This document shows, in pieces, positions 9,567 through 41,365 of a stretch of DNA of 64,000 nt (position 1 is the first letter of the stretch; each line of letters opens with the position of its first letter). Under the pieces are notes generated by a model. The model had not been told where the DNA came from. It worked only from the letters and a program-made list of their open reading frames with translations, and ran no database searches. The position numbers and the translations under genes are program-made. Origin of the DNA: a bacterium (GTDB taxonomy: Bacteria > Sysuimicrobiota > Sysuimicrobiia > Sysuimicrobiales > Kaftiobacteriaceae); assembly GCA_036004445.1 (NCBI GenBank), contig DASYRL010000067.1, positions 1,499 through 65,498 on the forward strand, given 5' to 3'.

Positions 9567-10464
<898 letters not shown>

Positions 10465-10475
<11 letters not shown>

Positions 10476-11223
10476 CGTCCGGGTGTTTCCCGAGCTCGAC
10501 GCGCTGAGCCGCGCTGTCGCCGAGACGTTCGTGTCGGAAGCCCTGCAGGCGATCAGGACCTCCGGGCGCTGCACAGTGGCACTGGCGGGGGGAAGCACTC
10601 CGCGGCGGCTGTACCGCTTTCTCGCGTTCGGGTACGCCGAACGGCTGCCCTGGCCGGCCGTGCAGTTATTCATGGGCGATGAGCGGTACGTCCCTCCCGG
10701 CGACACCCTGAGCAACTTTCGGATGGTACAGGAGACGTTGATCGACCACCTGCCGGTCCCGCCGGTGAATGTCCATCCGACGGATACGTCGTACGCGGAT
10801 CCCGCCCTCGCTGCCGAGGCCTATGAGCAGGTTCTGCGCGGGTACTTTTCGGGCGACTGGCCGCGTTTTGACGTCGTGTTCCTGGGCATGGGGACGGATG
10901 GGCACACCGCGTCGCTGTTTCCCGGAACGCCGGCGCTGCTCGAGACCACGCGCTGGGTCGTGGCCACCACATCGCCGCGGCAGCCCCCCGATCGCCTCAC
11001 GCTCACCCTGCCGGTATTCAACCACGCCCAACACGTCCACTTCCTGGTCGCCGGGCCGGCGAAGGCCGACGCGCTGCGCCAGGTGCTCATGACGCCCGAG
11101 ACCACGAGATGTACTGCCGCGCGCGTCAAGCCGATCGACGGCCACGTAACCTGGTGGGCGGACGAGGCCGCGGCCGCGGGAGTCGAGGAACTCGTTCAAG
11201 AGCGCGGAGCACAGGCGACCTAA
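10465..11223 (+). CDS. pgl: 6-phosphogluconolactonase
   Basis: 252 aa. GDERYVP and GMGTDGHTASLFPG motifs. Overlaps the gnd stop. Confidence 0.85.
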
Positions 11224-11244: not shown

Positions 11245-11358
11245 CTACGCGCTCTTCTTCTCAGCGTGGGCTTCCTTGTTGTGTTTGTCGAGTTCCTCCT
11301 TGGTCTTGAACTCCATGTTGCACTGAGGGCAACTCAGTGAGGTCGTCTTCGGTTCCAT
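11245..11358 (-). CDS. possible independently translated C2H2 zinc-finger mini-protein (37 aa), in frame with the oxidoreductase
   Basis: MEPKTTSLSCPQCNMEFKTKEELDKHNKEAHAEKKSA. Internal ATG 11358 is preceded by AAGGAGGTG with a 5-nt spacer. Confidence 0.4.
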   Translation of the reverse strand: MEPKTTSLSCPQCNMEFKTKEELDKHNKEAHAEKKSA

Positions 11359-12768
11359 GGCCCACCTCCTTTCTCCGATCTTCTCCGGTGCGATGTTCCG
11401 GAGGAGTGCGCGTGCCGTGCCCTCCACGCCCTCCTGCAGCGTCGGGAAGATGCCCACGGCTGTGGCTAGGTCGTCGATGGTCCCGCGACGGCGCATTACG
11501 ACGATGGCGTCGTAGATGAGATTGGCCGCATCCGGTCCCACGATGTGACAGCCTAGGATCCGCCGCGTGCGGCGCTCGGCGACGAACTTGATGACGCCTG
11601 CGGTTTCGCCAATCAGACGGGCCATTGAGACCTGGGAAAACTCCACCGTCCCGGTGACGACGTCGTGCCCGGCCTCGCGGGCCTCTGGCTCGGTCAGACC
11701 GACGCTGCCGACCTGCGGGTCGGTAAAGATCGCGTGCCCCAGCGGGGCCCGGTCGACGCGCCGACCCGCGCCCTGAAACGCGTTGCCAAAGGCGATCTTG
11801 CCTTCTTCCTGGCAGATGCGCGTGAACGGCTGTTTTCCGTTCACGTCGCCGATCGCCCAGATGCCCCGCGCAGTGGTCTCCAGGAAGTCATCCACGACGA
11901 CATAACCGGCCTCGTCGGTCCGGACGCCTGCCGCGGCCAGATTCAGCATCTCGGTATTCGGGATCCGGCCCGCAGCGGCCAGGAGGTGTGAGCCGGTGAC
12001 GGCCAGCTCCCGTCCCCCGGCGTCTGCCGCAACAGCCGAAACGTTGCCGTGACCGTGCCTTACGCTCACCAGGTCATGGCCGAGCCTGACCGTGATGCCT
12101 TCAGCGGCGAATGCCCCCGCGATGACCTCGCTGACCGCCGGGTCCTCGCGGGCCAGGAGGCGGTCTTTGCGGTGCAGGATCGTCACGTCCGCGCCGAACC
12201 GACGGAACGCCTGCGCCAGCTCGCATCCGACATATCCACCGCCCACGACGATGAGGTGTTCGGGAACCTCCTGCAGTTCCATGATGGTCTCATTGGTCAG
12301 GACCAACTGCGGATCCAGCCCAGGAAGATCGGGCATCCGCGGCCGCAGTCCGGTGGCGACGAAGATCGCCTCAGCGGTCAGCATCCGGTCGCCAATGGCG
12401 ACCGTTCGCGGGCCGGTAAAGCGCGCGCTGCCCTCGAACAGGATCAGCCCTTCGGCCTCGCGCGCGTGGCCGAAGGCCTCCTCACGATGGTCCTCCACCA
12501 GAGCGCGTTTCTCGCCGATGATGGCTTTGAGGTCGACCGACGTGTCCCAGGTCCGGACATGGTAGCGGGCCGCCGTCCGGCACAGATGCGCGATCCGTGC
12601 CCGGTGGATGAGGAACTTGCTGGGCACACAGCCGGTATTGATGCATGTACTGCCGTACGGGCGCTTGTAGATCAGGGCAACCCGTTTGCCCGCGTCCAGC
12701 GCCAGGCCCGCGACAACGGTCCCAGCCTCACCCGCACCGATGACGATAGCGTCGAAATTCGCGTCCAC
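11245..12768 (-). CDS. FAD-dependent pyridine nucleotide-disulfide oxidoreductase (dihydrolipoyl dehydrogenase/mercuric reductase-like) with in-frame C2H2 zinc-finger tail
   Basis: 507 aa. GAGEAG FAD motif, redox disulfide CINTGCVPSK, dimerisation domain. The last 37 aa form a C2H2 finger. Confidence 0.85.
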   Translation of the reverse strand: MDANFDAIVIGAGEAGTVVAGLALDAGKRVALIYKRPYGSTCINTGCVPSKFLIHRARIAHLCRTAARYHVRTWDTSVDLKAIIGEKRALVEDHREEAFGHAREAEGLILFEGSARFTGPRTVAIGDRMLTAEAIFVATGLRPRMPDLPGLDPQLVLTNETIMELQEVPEHLIVVGGGYVGCELAQAFRRFGADVTILHRKDRLLAREDPAVSEVIAGAFAAEGITVRLGHDLVSVRHGHGNVSAVAADAGGRELAVTGSHLLAAAGRIPNTEMLNLAAAGVRTDEAGYVVVDDFLETTARGIWAIGDVNGKQPFTRICQEEGKIAFGNAFQGAGRRVDRAPLGHAIFTDPQVGSVGLTEPEAREAGHDVVTGTVEFSQVSMARLIGETAGVIKFVAERRTRRILGCHIVGPDAANLIYDAIVVMRRRGTIDDLATAVGIFPTLQEGVEGTARALLRNIAPEKIGERRWAMEPKTTSLSCPQCNMEFKTKEELDKHNKEAHAEKKSA

Positions 12769-13586: not shown

Positions 13587-15188
<1,602 letters not shown>

Positions 15189-15196
15189 CCCTCCCT

Positions 15197-15901
15197 TCAG
15201 CCGAAGGCCGCCCGGTACTCTCTCACCGCCTTGGGGCCGTTCCGCTCCAGCGCCGCATAGAAAGCCTCGCGGTCCTGGTGGCGGAAATCCATCCGCTCGA
15301 CGTGGAATGGCGCGAGACGCTCACCCCCTCGGCGCCGGTCCACGACATTGAGGAAGTACTCGACGGCGTTGACGATGCTGGCTGGATCCGTCCAGTCGGA
15401 TTTGTACACGGGCACACCGGAGGCGGCGAAGATCCAGCTCATATTTGGCATGGAGCCGTATGCGCGATGGCAGGCGCCGTCCAGCGCATCGACGAGAATC
15501 GGACGCGTGACGCCGAGCCGGTCGCGCAACGCGCGCGCGTGCCGCAGCTTCTGTGCCATCGAGGTGTGGTGGGGGTAGAATTCGCCCGGATGCGCTTCGT
15601 GCGTGTAGAGGAAGACCGAGCCAACGCCTTGAGGAGCGACCCGCTGCGCGATCCCGTTCATGGATGGCGCCGCCATCCCGCAGTAGGGTCAGGTGAAGCT
15701 CCCAAATTCGACGATCGTGTACGTGTGCTGCGCCCAGATGGCAGACAGGCGCGTCTCGGCGCCGTCTAGGCCCCAGAGCGGGAAATCGGGGGCGGGCTGC
15801 CCGAGCGGCGGGCTTGCGGAGAAATTCAACCAGGGGCCGAACTTCTCAGGAATGAATTCATCGTAGTTGTAGCGGACCAGCAGGGCCGAATCGTTCACCA
15901 C
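15197..15901 (-). CDS. iodothyronine deiodinase-like thioredoxin-fold protein, candidate selenoprotein (in-frame TGA at 15689-15691)
   Basis: ORFs 15689..15901 and 15197..15676 share a frame. Read-through gives APDFPLWG...VEFGSFT-U-PYCG...LYTHEAHPGEF...HRAYGSMPN, 234 aa. Confidence 0.75.
15662..15678 (-). promoter_or_regulatory. candidate bacterial SECIS hairpin
   Basis: RNA GGAUGGC-GGC-GCCAUCC (7 bp, GGC loop) starts 10 nt after the UGA. Confidence 0.55.
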
Positions 15902-16098: not shown

Positions 16099-16657
16099 CT
16101 GACCACCTCCATCCGAGAATACGCGTACCATCGTATTGTTGCCGAGCTCGCCGGCCGGCGACTGTAACACGGCTTACACTTTTTGAACCTGGCCGCCGGC
16201 GGCTGAGGCCTTCACCAGGTAACGCGGCCCCACATCTCTATGACCGCCTTCGACGTTCGAGCTGCCCGGCGCTGCCCTTGCGATCAGCTTCTTCTGGCGG
16301 GCGTGGTCGGAGGCCTGCTCGCCACCATGTTCGCCGGGTACGTCTTCTTCCGAAGGTAAGCGCGCTGACAGCCGGCACGGCCCGTCGCGGGGACAATGGT
16401 GTCCGAATCACGGTGGAAGGAGGCGACGGCATGCCCGATCGCGTCCGACCAGGCATTCGCGCCGCGCGTGGGGCTGGTGCATGTGCCCAAGCTGGAGAAG
16501 GCTAGCGGGGATGATCCGGAGAGGCTGTCGTGCTGTGTGGAGTGACAGGAGTGAGAGGCGATACGCGTGCATAGTCGCTGCGATTGCTCTCCTCGGCATC
16601 CTGTCCCTCGCAGCGGCCGGGCACGGCGCGTGAGGACTGGCAACACCGTAAGACCGC

Positions 16658-17260
16658 CTAGCGCGATGGCGGAGGCGAGAACCGGATCAACTCCTCCGCG
16701 AACGTCTGCATCTGCTCAAAGGTCAGCAGGCCGGCGTGCTTGCGCAGAATCCGGCCGTCCGCGGTGATGAACACCGTGGTCGGCATGCCGAGGATCTGGT
16801 ATGTGTCGGTGATGTCCTCGTCGAACACCGTCCCCGCCGGATAGCGGATGCCCAGGGTCCGGAGCAGCGCCTGTCCCTCCTCGCGGGTGCCCAATCCCGT
16901 GTAGGGCCCGACGTCGATGCTGATCAGCACGAACCGATCTCCGGCCTGGTCGGCCAGCCGCTGCAGGTCAGGCATCTCGGCGCGGCACGGCGGGCACAGG
17001 CCGGCGAAGAAGTTGACGACGACGGGCTTTCCCCGCGCCCACACCTGAGAGAGTCGAACGACGTTTCCCCCGACGGCCTCGGCGCCCTGGTACATTCGAA
17101 TCTCGATGTCCGGCGCCCGGGGGAGGGGTTGTCCGGCCGGCGCAGAGGGGGGTGGCCCCTCCGTACGCGGAGGGCCGATGAGGCGGATGACCCCGACGGC
17201 GACGAGAAAGCTGCCGGCGAGGAGCAGCAGCCAGAGAATGAGGCGACGCTGTGCGGACAT
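16658..17260 (-). CDS. TlpA/ResA-family thiol:disulfide oxidoreductase, membrane-anchored
   Basis: 200 aa. N-terminal TM helix, then a redoxin fold with FFAGLCPPCRAEMP. Confidence 0.85.
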   Translation of the reverse strand: MSAQRRLILWLLLLAGSFLVAVGVIRLIGPPRTEGPPPSAPAGQPLPRAPDIEIRMYQGAEAVGGNVVRLSQVWARGKPVVVNFFAGLCPPCRAEMPDLQRLADQAGDRFVLISIDVGPYTGLGTREEGQALLRTLGIRYPAGTVFDEDITDTYQILGMPTTVFITADGRILRKHAGLLTFEQMQTFAEELIRFSPPPSR

Positions 17261-17332
17261 GGGAAATAATTCTCCGTCGAACAGAGTATCATCAATCGAG
17301 AGGACGGTTTCAGTAAGACAGGAGACAGATCG

Positions 17333-17566
17333 ATGGCCAAGTCCGTAGTGCTCTACTCACAGCCGGGCTGACTGTTCTGCGGTAAGGTGAAGGAGTTCCT
17401 TCACCAGAAGGGTGTTGCCTTCGAGGAGAAGGACATCAGCCGCGACGATCGGGCCCTGGATGAACTGCTCGAGAAAGGGTTTCAGGCCACGCCCGTGACC
17501 GTCATCGACGGCGACGCGGTGGTAGGATTCAACAAAGCCAAGCTCGAGGAGCTGCTGGGCCGGTAG
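17333..17566 (+). CDS. glutaredoxin/NrdH-like protein, candidate selenoprotein (in-frame TGA at 17369-17371)
   Basis: Not in the ORF track. MAKSVVLYSQPG-U-LFCGKVKEFLHQKGVAFEEKDISRDDRALDELLEKGFQATPVTVIDGDAVVGFNKAKLEELLGR. AGGAGA lies 7 nt before the ATG. Confidence 0.8.
17386..17405 (+). promoter_or_regulatory. candidate bacterial SECIS hairpin
   Basis: Perfect 8-bp stem GGUGAAGG / CCUUCACC with loop AGUU, starting 14 nt after the UGA. Confidence 0.7.
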
Positions 17567-17580
17567 GGAGGCCGAACGCC

Positions 17581-18000
17581 GTGGATCTGACCTGGGAGTC
17601 CGTGCAAGAGATCCTCGCCCAAACGAAGACGATCGCCGTGGTGGGACTGTCCGATAAGCCGGACCGCCCGAGCAACGAAGTCGCAGGATACATGCAGGCG
17701 CACGGGTACCGCATCATCCCCGTCAATCCAACCATCAAGGAAGCGTTCGGAGAGCAGGCGTATGCGAGCCTGCGCGATCTGCCCGAGAAGGTCGACGTGG
17801 TCCAGATCTTCCGGCGCGCCGAGGAAGTGCCCCCGATCGTGGACGACGCGATCGCGATCGGTGCCAAGGTCGTCTGGATGCAGCCGGGCGCGGAGAACGA
17901 GGACGCTGCCGCCAAGGCCGAGGCGGCAGGATTGAAGGCCGTCGTCGGGGCCTGCATGCGCGCAGTGCACCGCGCGCTGAGCGAGCGCCCCAAACACTAA
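17581..18000 (+). CDS. CoA-binding domain protein (YccU/YneT-like)
   Basis: 139 aa. IAVVGLSDKPDRPSNEVAGYMQAHGYRIIPVNP is typical of the CoA_binding_2 family. GTG start. Confidence 0.85.
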   Translation: MDLTWESVQEILAQTKTIAVVGLSDKPDRPSNEVAGYMQAHGYRIIPVNPTIKEAFGEQAYASLRDLPEKVDVVQIFRRAEEVPPIVDDAIAIGAKVVWMQPGAENEDAAAKAEAAGLKAVVGACMRAVHRALSERPKH

Positions 18001-18001
18001 C

Positions 18002-18030
18002 GGGAACAGGGAACTGGGAACGGGGAACGG
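18002..18030 (+). repeat. tandem heptamer GGGAACN x4
   Basis: GGGAACA GGGAACT GGGAACG GGGAACG G, immediately after the TAA stop of the CoA-binding gene. Confidence 0.85.
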
Positions 18031-18073
18031 TAAGACTCACCGCGCAGGAGCGTACCTCGCGGGCCTGGGGACG

Positions 18074-19132
18074 TTGGCAGCTGCAACCGGGCTCCTCGTA
18101 TCGCTGCGATCGTACCTCGGACTCGCCACCGTCGCGCTGATCTATCTCCTCGTGGTGTTCGTGAGCGCGCTGCTGTGGGGCCGCGGGCCCAGCCTAACGT
18201 CCGGCATCGCCGCGTTCGTCGCCCTCAACTACTTCTTCACCGTCCCCTTTCACACGTTCGTTGTCGCGTCGACGCAGGACGTCATCACTCTGCTGGTCTT
18301 TCTCTTCGTCGCGGAAATGACCAGCCGGCTGGTTGCGCAGCTGCGCCGCCGCGAAGCCGACGCGCGCCTGCGCCTCGTCCAGGCCGAACTCTTGCGGCAA
18401 AGGGAGGCCGAGGCCGAGGCGCTCCGCAAGACCGACGAGCTGAAATCTGAGCTCCTTGCCGCCGTGTCCCACGACCTGCGCACGCCGCTGTCCTCGATCC
18501 GCGTCGCCGCTACCGCGCTCGACCAGAACGGAGTGCACTGGGGTGACGAGACGCGGCACGAGATGTTGAGGATGATCGACACGGAAGCCGCCCGCCTGTC
18601 CCGGCTGGTCGGCAACCTGCTGGACTTGTCGCGGATCGAAGCGGGCGTGCTGCACCCCCAGAAAGAATGGCGGAGCCTCGATGAGGTGGTGGCGCGGGCC
18701 ATCGATGATCTCGGTGACCGCCTGCGTGAGCATCGCGTTACTGTGCAAATCCCGGAGTCGCTGCCCCTCGTGCCGCTGGACTTCACCCACATTGAAGACG
18801 TGTTCGTCAACCTGCTCGAAAACGCCGTGCGCCACGCCCCGCCTGGAACGGAGATCCGCATTTCCGCGCGCTCGAACGGTTCGGACATGATTGCGCAGGT
18901 CGAAAACGACGGACCGCCGGTCTCCATCGAAGCCGCAGGCGAGGTATTCAACCGATTCTATTCGGCGCGCAGTGCCTACCACGGGACGGGGCTCGGGCTG
19001 GCGATCTGCAAGGGGCTGGTCGAAGCCCACGGCGGCCGCATCTGGGTCGAGCGCCCCGGGGAACGCGGAGCCCGGTTTGCCCTTGCGCTTCCCCTGTCCG
19101 GCGCGTCGTCCGAATCAATCCGGCAGGCCTAG
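18074..19132 (+). CDS. DUF4118-domain sensor histidine kinase (KdpD C-terminal-like, lacks the KdpD/Usp sensor part)
   Basis: 352 aa. TM region ALNYFFTVPFHTF, HisKA box LLAAVSHDLRTPLSSI, HATPase_c G-boxes (GTGLGLAICKG). The start (TTG 18074) is uncertain. Confidence 0.85.
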   Translation: MAAATGLLVSLRSYLGLATVALIYLLVVFVSALLWGRGPSLTSGIAAFVALNYFFTVPFHTFVVASTQDVITLLVFLFVAEMTSRLVAQLRRREADARLRLVQAELLRQREAEAEALRKTDELKSELLAAVSHDLRTPLSSIRVAATALDQNGVHWGDETRHEMLRMIDTEAARLSRLVGNLLDLSRIEAGVLHPQKEWRSLDEVVARAIDDLGDRLREHRVTVQIPESLPLVPLDFTHIEDVFVNLLENAVRHAPPGTEIRISARSNGSDMIAQVENDGPPVSIEAAGEVFNRFYSARSAYHGTGLGLAICKGLVEAHGGRIWVERPGERGARFALALPLSGASSESIRQA

Positions 19133-19135
19133 TCG

Positions 19136-19818
19136 ATGACGGGCGCGAGGGTTCTTGTCGTCGACGACGAGCCGCAGATCTGCAGAGTCCTGCGGCGAGC
19201 GCTTGAGGCACACGGATACGACGTGCGGACGGTCGGGAGCGGGAGGACGCGCTGGCGACGCTGCGCTGGCATCCGGACATCGTCCTGCTGGACCTGATGC
19301 TCCCCGACGTCGACGGCCTCGACGTGTCCCGGCGCATCCGCGCATTGTCGCCGGTCCCGATCCTCGTACTGTCGGCGCGGGGCGAGGAGCCGATGAAGGT
19401 CCGCGCGCTGGACGAAGGTGTCGATGACTACATCACCAAGCCCTTCGGCACCGACGAGTTGCTGGCCCGGATCCGCGTCGCCCTGCGCCACGCGGCCGGG
19501 GAGCCGGCCGAGCCGGTCGTCGTGGTCGGTGCCCTGCGGGTGGACCTGGACCGGCGAATCGTCACGCTCGGCGGCAAGGACGTGCATCTCACGCCTTCAG
19601 AGTACGAAGTCTTGAGGTATCTTGCCCAACGCGCGGGAAAGGTCATCACCCACCGCACGCTGCTGCAGCACGTCTGGGGCCCGGAGCACGTCACCGACAC
19701 ACAATACCTGCACGTCCTGGTGAGCCAGCTGAGACGCAAAATCGAGCCTCACCCCGCGAGGCCACAATATATCCTGACCGAACCGGGAGTGGGCTACCGG
19801 TTTCGCGCGCCGTCCTGA
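19136..19818 (+). pseudogene. OmpR/KdpE-like response regulator with an apparent 1-nt frameshift near 19241-19246
   Basis: ATG 19136 gives MTGARVLVVDDEPQICRVLRRALEAHGYDVRTVGSG, then goes out of frame. ORF 19297..19818 continues with LLDLMLPDVDG...winged helix. Restoring one G in AGCGGGAGG rejoins the frames. Confidence 0.75.
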
Positions 19819-30385: not shown

Positions 30386-31060
30386 ATGAGCCACAGCACA
30401 ATGCATCCCAGGGAGTCGTTCGAGCAGGCGCTGCGCGGCCTGGAAGACGATATCGTCCGGATGGGCACCATGGCCGGGGCGCTCATCCACCGGGCCATTG
30501 AGGCCCTGCAGGCGCGTGATGCGGGAGAAGCCGACGCCGTGATCGCCGATGACACCCGCGTCGACGCGCTCCATCTGGAAATCGAGCAGCGGGTCATCGC
30601 TCTGCTGGCGACCCAGCAACCGATGGCTCGCGACCTCCGCGAGCTGACCAGCACCATGGCGATCTCGATCGACCTGGAACGGATGGCCGACCATGCCGAG
30701 GGGATCGGCAAGGCGATCAAGCGGCTGATCAAGGAGCCCCCGCTGAAACCGGTGGTAGACATTCCCCGTATCGAACAGATCGTGCAGGGGATGCTCCAAG
30801 ACGCCCTCGACGCCTTCGTGCGCCGCGACGTGGCGCTCGCCGAGTCGCTCGCGGCGAAGGACGACATGGTCGATGACCTCCGATCGCAGGTGTTTCGGGA
30901 ACTCCTCGCCGACATGGTCAAGGATCCGCAGACCACCAGCCGGGCGTTGGAATTGATCCTCGTCGCCCAGCACCTCGAGCGGGCCGCCGACCACATCACC
31001 AACGTCGCCGAGCGGGTGATCTACCTCGTGACCGGAGAGATGCGCGAGCTCAACGTCTAG
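30386..31060 (+). CDS. phoU: phosphate signaling complex protein PhoU
   Basis: 224 aa. Two PhoU repeats, each with an (E/D)xxxD-type motif (DLERMADHA, HLERAADHI). Confidence 0.9.
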   Translation: MSHSTMHPRESFEQALRGLEDDIVRMGTMAGALIHRAIEALQARDAGEADAVIADDTRVDALHLEIEQRVIALLATQQPMARDLRELTSTMAISIDLERMADHAEGIGKAIKRLIKEPPLKPVVDIPRIEQIVQGMLQDALDAFVRRDVALAESLAAKDDMVDDLRSQVFRELLADMVKDPQTTSRALELILVAQHLERAADHITNVAERVIYLVTGEMRELNV

Positions 31061-31449
31061 TCCGGGAGCCGTCGCACGAGATCGGCGACACGGATCCGCA
31101 GATCGTCCCGGATCCCGCGGACAAACTTCAGATCCCGCCCGACGGGATCCGGCAGCGGCCAGTGCTCGTTGGGGACGCCCGGGACGACCGGGCAGGCCTC
31201 CTCGGCGCACAACCCGATGACCAGCGCCACCTCGGGGGTCAGCGCCTCGTCGAGCGATTTTGGATACTGCCCCTGCAGGTCAAAGCGCAATTCCCGCATG
31301 ACCTCATAGGTCTGCGGCATGATCTGAGTTGCCGGCGCCGTCCCCGCGGAACCTGCGCGCCACCCGGGCGGAGCCAGCGCATTGAAGAAGGCCTCCGCCA
31401 TCTGGGAGCGCATGCTGTTCCCGCGTCAGACGAATAAGACGCGTTGCAT
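31057..31449 (-). CDS. arsC: thioredoxin-coupled arsenate reductase (LMW-PTP fold), candidate selenoprotein (in-frame TGA at 31426-31428)
   Basis: ORF 31057..31413 extends upstream in frame: MQRVLFV-U-RGNSMRSQMAEAFF... The P-loop CX5R has U at the nucleophile position. The ArsC Cys82/Cys89 equivalents (GLCAEEACP) are present. GAGGAGG lies 5 nt before ATG 31449. Confidence 0.7.
31404..31422 (-). promoter_or_regulatory. weak candidate SECIS hairpin
   Basis: RNA GGGAACAGCAUGCGCUCCC: a GGGA/UCCC base with imperfect inner pairs, starting 3 nt after the UGA. Much less convincing than the other three. Confidence 0.25.
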
Positions 31450-33310: not shown

Positions 33311-33350
33311 TTTCCCCTACGTGTTAGGATAGAAGCGACAACTACAGACG

Positions 33351-33487
33351 ACCTTCGGGGCAGGGTGCGCCCGTTCGACGTAGCTCAGGGCAATTCCCGA
33401 CCGGCGGTACAGCCCGCTACCCGCCGATTGCGGCGGTGGATCCGGTGTGATTCCGGGGCCGACGGTATAGTCCGGATGGGAGAAGGT
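33351..33487 (+). promoter_or_regulatory. FMN riboswitch (RFN element) aptamer
   Basis: P1 ACCTTC (33351-56) / GAAGGT (33482-87). Conserved CTTCGGGGCAGGGTG, ATTCCCGACCGGCGGTA, AGCCCG, GGTGGAT, GCCGACGGTATAGTCCGGATGGGAGAAGG blocks. Upstream of ribU. Confidence 0.85.
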
Positions 33488-33497
33488 CAAACTTCAC

Positions 33498-38283: not shown

Positions 38284-38970
38284 ATGGCGTTTTTGAACCC
38301 GCAGGACGCCGAGTTCATCCGCAGGCGGTTCGCCTCCGAGCTGAAAGGCGACGTTACGCTGGAGTTTTTCGCTCCGAGCGCAGGGGGCCTCGTGCTGCCC
38401 GGACAGGACGGGGAGACGGCGGAGTACACGCGCAGGATCCTTGAAGAAGTGGCCGGCCTCTCCGACCGGGTCCGCCTCACCGTACACAGCGTCGTGACGG
38501 AGCCGGAGGTCGTCCGGCGGTTTGGGATCGAGCGCACGCCGGCCATCGCGTTTGTCGGTGCGGAAGATTATGGAATCCGATACTACGGGATTCCCGGCGG
38601 GTACGAGTTCGCCACCCTGCTGGAACTGATCATTGCCGTCTCGGTGGGCCGGGCCGACATCGCCGAGTCCTCAAAGGACGCGCTTGCCCGGCTGAAGGAG
38701 AGCGCGCACATTCAAGTCTTCGTCACGCCGACCTGACCGCACTGTCCGCGCCCGGCCAGGCTGGCCGGCCTGCTGGCCATCGAGAGCGCGAAGGTCAGCG
38801 CGGACATCGTCGAGGCCAGCGAGTTCCCCGAGCTCGCGGAGCGATACGCCGTCTATGCGGTTCCGAAGATTGTCATCAACGACGACACCGAGTTCGTCGG
38901 CGCCCAGCCGGAAGCCCACTTCGTCGCCTACGTGGCCAACGCGGCCGGTGTCGAAGAACCGGCCGGATAG
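38284..38970 (+). CDS. glutaredoxin-like/protein disulfide oxidoreductase (PDO, two Trx-fold units), candidate selenoprotein (in-frame TGA at 38734-38736)
   Basis: ORF 38236..38736 continues in frame: ...HIQVFVTPT-U-PHCPRPARLAGLLAIESAKVSADIVEASEFPELAERYAVYAVPKIVINDDTEFVGAQPE...*. TAG at 38968-38970. Start at ATG 38284 is tentative. Confidence 0.75.
38752..38768 (+). promoter_or_regulatory. candidate bacterial SECIS hairpin
   Basis: CCGGCC-AGGCU-GGCCGG (6 bp, loop with GG), starting 15 nt after the UGA. Confidence 0.55.
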
Positions 38971-41278: not shown

Positions 41279-41365
41279 GCGGAAGTGGCGGAACTGGCAG
41301 ACGCGCAGGCCTCAGAAGCCTGTGGGGGAAACCTCGTGGGGGTTCAAATCCCTCCTTCCGCACCA
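41279..41365 (+). tRNA. tRNA-Leu (anticodon CAG), type II with long variable arm, CCA encoded
   Basis: Acceptor GCGGAAG/CTTCCGC. Anticodon stem CAGGC/GCCTG with loop CTCAGAA. T-loop GGTTCAAATCC. 3' ACCA. Confidence 0.9.

Follow-up and report, generated by a model that had tools for sequence, protein, structure and literature searches.

A predicted glutaredoxin-family selenoprotein encoded across an in-frame UGA in a Sysuimicrobiota genome

We analyzed a 64,000-nucleotide stretch of DNA (hereafter, the window) from a GC-rich MAG of the phylum Sysuimicrobiota (CSP1-3). Positions 17333-17566 are best read as one gene for a 77-residue protein of the glutaredoxin family, in which the UGA at codon 13 is predicted to be read as selenocysteine (Sec13) by means of a hairpin that follows it. 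We put the probability of this reading, including the predicted incorporation of selenium, at about 0.94. The finding matters for database curation, because this gene and dozens of its orthologs are deposited as stumps of 59 or 64 residues that lack the active site. A dedicated model for the clade would mend many of these records.

The coding sequence, its product and the hairpin

The features of the locus and of the remainder of the window are collected in Table 1. The first-pass annotation of this DNA had placed the start at ATG 17333, with AGGAGA 7 nt upstream and a TGA as codon 13, and direct reading and translation agree with it in each respect. It had also claimed that the gene was missing from the list of open reading frames. 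Indeed, the plain ORF list holds at this locus just a 59-residue stump (17387-17566) that starts at GTG 17387. Motifs of the GGAGG type also precede codon 1 in orthologs. The codons right after the TGA are CTG TTC TGC, giving Leu-Phe-Cys16, and the protein ends in ...LLGR directly before the TAG.

Table 1. Features of the Sec-glutaredoxin locus, of the rest of the window and of related loci. Positions refer to the window unless a contig or locus is named.
Feature	Position	Strand	Details
Shine-Dalgarno AGGAGA	17320-17325	+	7 nt 5' of ATG 17333-35; direct reading
Sec-glutaredoxin-like coding sequence	17333-17566	+	77 codons, MAKSVVLYSQPG-U-LFCGKVKEFL...; translated with TGA as U
UGA codon 13, predicted Sec13	17369-17371	+	Putative attacking residue of the U-L-F-C16 redox motif; ortholog alignment
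TGC, Cys16	17378-17380	+	Putative resolving cysteine; near-invariant alignment column; matches cGrx1 C16 (PMC7642778, PMC4479559)
Predicted bacterial SECIS hairpin	17386-17405	+	8-bp stem GGUGAAGG/CCUUCACC, apical loop AGUU; folding and ortholog comparison
First stem arm	17386-17393	+	GGTGAAGG
Loop	17394-17397	+	AGTT
Second stem arm	17398-17405	+	CCTTCACC
Stop TAG of the Sec-glutaredoxin gene	17564-17566	+	Direct reading
Stand-alone CoA-binding protein (PF13380, CoA_binding_2)	17581-18000	+	Pfam 145 bits; start GTG 17581
Membrane-anchored TlpA/ResA-like thiol:disulfide oxidoreductase (CPPC)	16658-17260	-	Redoxin/AhpC-TSA and ResA/TlpA matches, all under family cut-offs
Deiodinase-like/redoxin gene	15197-15901	-	'EFGSFT-U-PYC', codon 71; TGA splits two ORFs; stem-loop after TGA
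DUF3179 protein	13983-15188	+	364 bits; CPLC, the Cys form
ORF, 121 residues	13587-13952	-	C-terminal third of thioredoxin reductase only; 68 bits, positions 234-300 of TIGR01292
Class-I pyridine-nucleotide disulfide oxidoreductase	11245-12768	-	507 residues, redox site 'TCINTGC'
ArsC-like (LMW-PTP-type) gene	31057-31449	-	'V-U-RGNSMRS', codon 8; downstream stem
FMN riboswitch	33347-33491	+	99.4 bits, Rfam scan
PDO/AhpF-N-like gene	38284-38970	+	'TPT-U-PHC', codon 151; downstream stem
tRNA-Leu(CAG)	41279-41365	+	
selD	C135:13690-14613	+	One in-frame TGA, 'VACAG-U-ASKL'
Metal cluster, L085	1284-4094		
Metal cluster, L079	866-3225		
Metal cluster, L087	1315-3225		
Metal cluster, L072	422-2146		

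With the TGA read as a residue, the product matches the Pfam Glutaredoxin family (PF00462) over residues 5-62, scoring 55.4 bits where the cut-off is 22.9 (E 7e-15). The closest solved structure by sequence is PDB 7c10, one of the entries (7c10/7c12/7c13) for cGrx1 of Clostridium (Alkaliphilus) oremlandii OhILAs, on which residues 1-76 align to residues 1-76 without a gap (50% identity, E 1.4e-17). From 33 sequences AlphaFold produced a model (pLDDT 95.2) that has a thioredoxin fold with the order beta1-alpha1-beta2-alpha2-beta3-beta4-alpha3. The top Foldseek match of this model is again 7c10 ('Dithiol cGrx1', TM 0.95, rmsd 0.7 A), followed by B. cereus BC3987 and then by NrdH-redoxins. In the ortholog alignment (A2) column 13 is invariably U or C, and the Cys16 column is nearly invariant. 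The glutaredoxin-fold layout that had been recognized from the letters alone is thus confirmed by the PF00462 match and by the fold match to cGrx1.

A profile search of the product against NCBIfam found no model that it matches at the model's own cut-off. The best was the YruB family (TIGR02196; 73.5 bits, cut-off 88.55); the scores were 62.8 bits (cut-off 85.75) for NrdH-redoxin (TIGR02194), 53.2 (cut-off 66) for the UXX-star selenoprotein models and 39.9 (cut-off 90) for the classical, GSH-dependent Grx3 (TIGR02181). As every score lies under its cut-off, strict membership of any of these four families was rejected. The earlier label 'glutaredoxin/NrdH-like' therefore holds for its first half; the second half is a mere resemblance, given the score below the NrdH cut-off and the lack of ribonucleotide reductase genes (nrdI/E/F) near the gene, none of which was found in the window. 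The gene is a further Sec-glutaredoxin (UxxC, PF00462), a kind that is already known, and does not strictly qualify as an NrdH.

The hairpin, too, had been described beforehand as an 8-bp stem with an AGUU loop 14 nt past the UGA, and both direct reading and folding reproduce it. It starts exactly 14 nt past the TGA, and its G-U-containing apical loop lies 22 nt past the UGA. Bacterial SECIS elements are characterized by a stem-loop shortly past the UGA whose small apical loop contains a G (PMC1088965), and the hairpin at 17386-17405 has this form. It codes for K18-V-K-E-F-L-H-Q25, in helix alpha1. A 60-nt stretch at this site has a local MFE of -23.5 kcal/mol (z = -2.57), and one of 200 shuffles was equally stable.

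Orthologs, selenocysteine machinery and alternative readings

We searched 60 related genomes and the genome itself in six frames, and the gene was found in 33 of the 61. Of the best 30 loci, 29 carry a single in-frame TGA, always at the same codon, and the remaining one (L040) has TGT there. A scan of one genome per species gave 46 loci, with TGA in all of them down to ~52% identity; farther homologs from Firmicutes and Actinobacteria have Cys at the Sec position. In addition to the 29 loci from the relatives, 36 loci with the TGA belong to named MAGs of Sysuimicrobiota, Chloroflexota, Rokubacteria, Acidobacteriota, Nitrospirae and a deltaproteobacterium. The titles in the scan include Candidatus Fervidifonticultor and Calidihabitans (phylum Candidatus Sysuimicrobiota), 'Armatimonadota' MAGs, Ardenticatenales and Caldilineae, as well as Rokuibacteriota, Acidiferrales/Terriglobia, Nitrospirae and a deltaproteobacterium. 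The TGA stands at the identical alignment position in all 54 distinct Sec-form orthologs, and Sec13 aligns to U13 of C. oremlandii Grx1. To judge from this comparison, the recurrence of TGA together with the hairpin in 54 distinct orthologs is far beyond chance.

The first-pass annotation had taken Sec to replace the first Cys of a CxxC motif, and had named homologs with Cys, Sec machinery and a conserved hairpin as the points on which its reading would stand or fall. All three turned out in its favor. The full-length Cys homologs P0005-P0008 read 'QPGCLFCGKV', with Cys exactly at U13; the TGT of L040 aligns at U13 as well, so that the TGA column is matched by Cys in each of these sequences. 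Every TGA-bearing ortholog retains the hairpin; in the Cys forms it has decayed. The same genome also holds the complete set of Sec genes, and selA, selB, selC and selD all exceed curated cut-offs. The tRNA-SeC (anticodon UCA, 74.6 bits against 47) lies on contig C129, adjoined by both selB (340.7 bits) and selA (559.5 bits), and selD (391.9 bits) lies on contig C135. Because selD carries an in-frame TGA itself, the selenophosphate synthetase would also be a selenoprotein in this genome.

More long ORFs of the genome end in TGA than in any other stop (1488 out of 2639, 56%), which indicates local recoding with the genetic code unchanged. On the same count we rejected a global reassignment of UGA to Trp or Gly. 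In the 61 genomes of the order, the present one included, selA exceeds its cut-off in 49, so the use of Sec appears to be pervasive in the order (Sysuimicrobiota/CSP1-3). It is present in 28 of the 32 genomes that have the TGA form of the glutaredoxin gene; the four TGA-form relatives in which SelA was not found (G008, G015, G026 and G037) are all incomplete MAGs. Neither Sysuimicrobiota nor CSP1-3 is named in a 2026 review of the prokaryotic selenoproteome (PMC13188914).

The 64-kb window contains at least four Sec genes. Besides the Sec-glutaredoxin, Table 1 lists a deiodinase-like gene, which sits 1.4 kb upstream of it, an ArsC-like gene and a PDO/AhpF-N-like gene. The other Sec genes of the genome likewise have stem-loops at a comparable distance past the TGA. 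The DUF3179 protein encoded in the window has the Cys form of a family that is known to include selenoproteins with UxxC/T (PMC9312934).

The hairpin was followed through the Sec-form orthologs at the level of single pairs. Codons 17-26 exist in 37 sequence variants, each of which has the hairpin at the same place, with GAGUU (the last stem base and the loop) invariant; the stem variants include changes from U-A to U-G and C-G, from A-U to G-C, and one bulged form. In Chloroflexota, Acidobacteriota and Nitrospirae, Ser stands in place of His24, and the stem is formed anew with its register shifted by one base, as GUGAAAGA-GUU-UCUUUCAC. Applied to the codon alignment, the named structure is paired in 82.6% of the cells, compared with 41-64% for slid controls; the percentage paired and the covariation score both beat all 500 shuffles, and the latter also beats all slid controls, although the sequences are related, so that the significance against shuffles is overstated and these figures are indicative only. 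Three stem pairs, a modest number, are changed on both sides (11 of 500 shuffles reach three). Pairing is underestimated by the codon alignment, because the stem is shifted by one base in the distant phyla. The stem has -13.7 kcal/mol here, and -7.5, -6.9 and -4.2 kcal/mol in three Cys forms. One of these Cys forms, P0005 (locus L102, 1242-1490), has nearly the same peptide, GKVREFLHQ, in different codons and keeps a weakened hairpin remnant (-6.9 kcal/mol); by its sequence it looks like a recent Sec-to-Cys conversion.

One alternative is that the hairpin is no SECIS. It would then arise as a by-product of conservation of the peptide KVKEFL(H/S)Q, or represent some general mRNA element, and any read-through would come about by another route. 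The peptide is conserved, with its VKEFL part present also in Cys forms and in cGrx1, and several stem pairs are invariant within the phylum. Moreover, scanning the entire window against Rfam at gathering thresholds returned only an FMN riboswitch and a tRNA, and no SECIS family; bacterial SECIS elements are too short and too diverse for those models. The codons, however, are frozen in a way that the peptide does not require. Glu21 is GAG in 54 of 54 Sec forms, whereas ~30% of the codons at the five other Glu positions are GAA, and Leu23 is CTT in 49 of 54, a codon that is rare at the other Leu positions of the gene. In Cys forms whose peptide is identical or similar, the codons differ and the stem is gone. 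The rebuilding of the stem after the His24 to Ser change, the compensatory C-G and G-C pairs and the stem-loops of the genome's other Sec genes also speak against a by-product, which we consider very improbable. The hairpin thus appears, from these comparisons, to be selected as RNA.

The two remaining alternatives concern the TGA itself. If TGA 17369 were a true stop, the real product would be the 59-residue ORF from GTG 17387 that is publicly annotated, and gene callers do yield exactly that stump (P0002-P0004 and dozens of entries of 59 or 64 residues). Such truncations make up most of the remaining matches in the protein collection, some under the name 'glutaredoxin family protein'. Yet the stump lacks strand beta1 and the entire U/CxxC site, and full-length Cys homologs exist. 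The records of 64 residues begin at a Leu or Met codon directly past the TGA, which marks them as an artefact of truncation. Direct reading finds no Shine-Dalgarno motif ahead of the internal GTG 17387, whereas AGGAGA precedes ATG 17333. The 12 codons before the TGA are under selection at the protein level across phyla: in the 54 Sec forms Q10 and G12 are conserved in 100% and P11 in 98%, and the third positions of these codons vary freely, with up to four codons per site, from which it follows that the upstream part is translated. A true stop is therefore extremely improbable. The TGA might also be a nonsense change from TGC or TGT in a Cys-type glutaredoxin, that is, a pseudogene or an assembly error; it is one base away from either codon, and MAGs do contain errors. 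But the same TGA occurs in 54 distinct sequences from independent assemblies of several phyla, and it is accompanied by a dedicated hairpin and by Sec machinery in the genome. A pseudogene or error is effectively refuted, its probability being close to nil.

Genomic neighborhood and proposed mechanism

The gene lies between a divergent gene for a TlpA-like redoxin and a gene for a CoA-binding protein (PDB relatives 2duw, PH1109 and TT1466). This layout had been reported correctly by the first-pass annotation; its spacer of 15 nt to the CoA-binding gene had to be corrected to 14 nt (GTG 17581). In most Sysuimicrobiota orthologs the CoA-binding gene follows on the same strand after 12-51 nt, and in the Cys form P0008 the stop and start of the two genes overlap. 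The contig of P0008 also has genes for 6PGD and 6-phosphogluconolactonase, as at 9567-11223 of the window. No terminator-like site was found on the plus strand between the Sec-glutaredoxin and CoA-binding genes. Because of the 14-nt spacing, the lack of such a site and the conserved adjacency, the two genes likely form one operon, in which co-transcription would be the most likely mode of expression. A scan of 16500-19200 for sigma-70-like promoters, which is not informative for this phylum, found none. The pairing with the CoA-binding gene is not present outside Sysuimicrobiota. The TlpA-like gene is separated from the Sec-glutaredoxin gene by a 72-nt spacer, and the divergent arrangement recurs in about a dozen related loci. 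A histidine kinase is also among the neighbors.

Many of the other Sec-form loci lie close to genes for metal handling. By a hand tally, 18 of the 37 named Sec-form loci have a P1B heavy-metal ATPase, MerR/CsoR, MerT, MerP/HMA or zf_CopZ within 3 kb; in Acidobacteriota, for example, the order MerR-MerT-MerP-zfCopZ-SecGrx-CDF occurs. By tblastn, metal-cluster genes were found in 23 of 67 loci, some of them from Sysuimicrobiota (for instance L057, with the order Grx-CoAbind-MerR-HMA-P1B ATPase), and none were found in the present window. Since genomes have few such genes, we infer that the association is probably far above chance. Loci with these clusters come from Acidobacteriota, Chloroflexota and Nitrospirae. 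L085 and L087 have the order MerR-MerT-MerP(HMA)-zf_CopZ/BFD-SecGrx-CDF, and L079 has CsoR-MerT-MerP(HMA)-zf_CopZ-SecGrx. L072 has CsoR and a MerT-HMA fusion, and L067, L071 and L082 have a P1B ATPase with or without CsoR and DUF302. As an isolated case, the acidobacterial L079 also has a class II RNR gene, which lies ~550 nt downstream of the Sec-glutaredoxin gene.

The anatomy of the locus and the comparison with relatives suggest the following mechanism. SelB carrying Sec-tRNA(Sec) would bind the hairpin as the ribosome meets the UGA, and selenocysteine would go in as residue 13. By homology to cGrx1, Sec13, at the N-terminus of helix alpha1, would attack a substrate disulfide, sulfenic acid or selenenylsulfide. 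Cys16 would then resolve the mixed Se-S bond, as expected from the U13/C16 pair of cGrx1, to leave an internal selenenylsulfide. Homology to cGrx1 and general thioredoxin-fold chemistry point to a flavoprotein disulfide reductase or a low-molecular-weight thiol for its re-reduction. As candidate substrates we name the genome's MsrA, which is of the Cys type, and metal-handling proteins rich in cysteine.

Redoxins of the NrdH/YruB type are served by thioredoxin reductase. No canonical thioredoxin reductase above the cut-off was found in the 86%-complete MAG, where the best match has 175 bits against 343. The window encodes a pyridine-nucleotide disulfide oxidoreductase, with an unusual C-terminal tail that resembles a C2H2 zinc finger ('SCPQCNMEFKTKEELDKHNKEAH'), and this enzyme is a possible reductase for the local redoxins. 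The 121-residue ORF that matches part of thioredoxin reductase is likely a remnant, because the DUF3179 gene on the opposite strand occupies the rest of its space.

The proximity of Cu/Hg genes and the putative operon with a CoA-binding gene offer testable leads on the physiological role. We entertain, as a tentative and on balance unlikely idea, that the clade with the signature QPG-U-x-FCGKVKEFL is a dedicated selenol partner of Cu/Hg handling and/or of a CoA-based thiol system, rather than a general disulfide reductase. If so, the selenol could serve to keep metal-binding cysteines reduced, to pass on or remove Hg(II)/Cu(I), or to reduce mixed disulfides of CoA and protein.

Comparison with known systems

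The Grx1 of C. oremlandii was reportedly studied by Kim et al. (2011, Mol Microbiol 79:1194). The present protein resembles it in length class, in the gapless identity of 50% over 76 residues, in having Sec13 and Cys16 under the same numbering, in the beta-alpha-beta-alpha-beta-beta-alpha fold of the predicted model and in the VKEFL that follows the active site. It differs in the active site, which is U-L-F-C here and U-P-H-C in cGrx1, in its host (cGrx1 belongs to an anaerobic Firmicute) and in its gene neighbors, here a CoA-binding protein and TlpA. We also considered a tandem Sec pairing of Grx1 with MsrA as in C. oremlandii, and rejected it because the MsrA of this genome is of the Cys type, with no in-frame stop. 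To our knowledge, reduction of MsrA in one Clostridium is the only role known for a Sec-Grx. The cGrx1 itself is naturally a selenoprotein, with the pair U13/C16, and the forms that were crystallized are U13C and U13C/C16S (PMC7642778, PMC4479559).

With the NrdH-redoxins and the YruB family (PDB 1h75, 4fiw and 4hs1; B. cereus BC3987, 3zij) the protein shares a size of ~75-80 residues and a thioredoxin-like fold (TM 0.85-0.9). In contrast to them it scores below both curated cut-offs, has no nrdI/E/F neighborhood in the window and contains Sec. The active site of NrdH is typically CVQC, compared with ULFC here. The UXX-star proteins (NF041212, NF041114, NF041211 and NF047338) also have a glutaredoxin-like fold and show weak profile similarity to the present protein (~53 bits), but their Sec is third from the C-terminus (U-x-x-stop), whereas it is residue 13 of 77 here.

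Sec-glutaredoxins of PF00462 with UxxC have been catalogued since the selenoproteome of the Sargasso Sea in 2005 (PMC1088965), and they are entered as experimentally verified in reviews of 2022 (PMC9312934) and 2026 (PMC13188914). The protein described here agrees with them in Pfam family, in UxxC, in Sec in place of the first Cys and in a SECIS-like element within the coding region whose small apical loop contains a G. The novelty is accordingly modest, and lies in the lineage, the breadth of the QPG-U-x-FCGKVKEFL clade, the systematic truncation in databases and the leads from genomic context (the CoA-binding partner and the metal clusters). With its TGA form in at least five phyla, the clade extends a validated type of selenoprotein, that of cGrx1, from anaerobic Firmicutes to Sysuimicrobiota/CSP1-3, Chloroflexota, Acidobacteriota and Nitrospirota.
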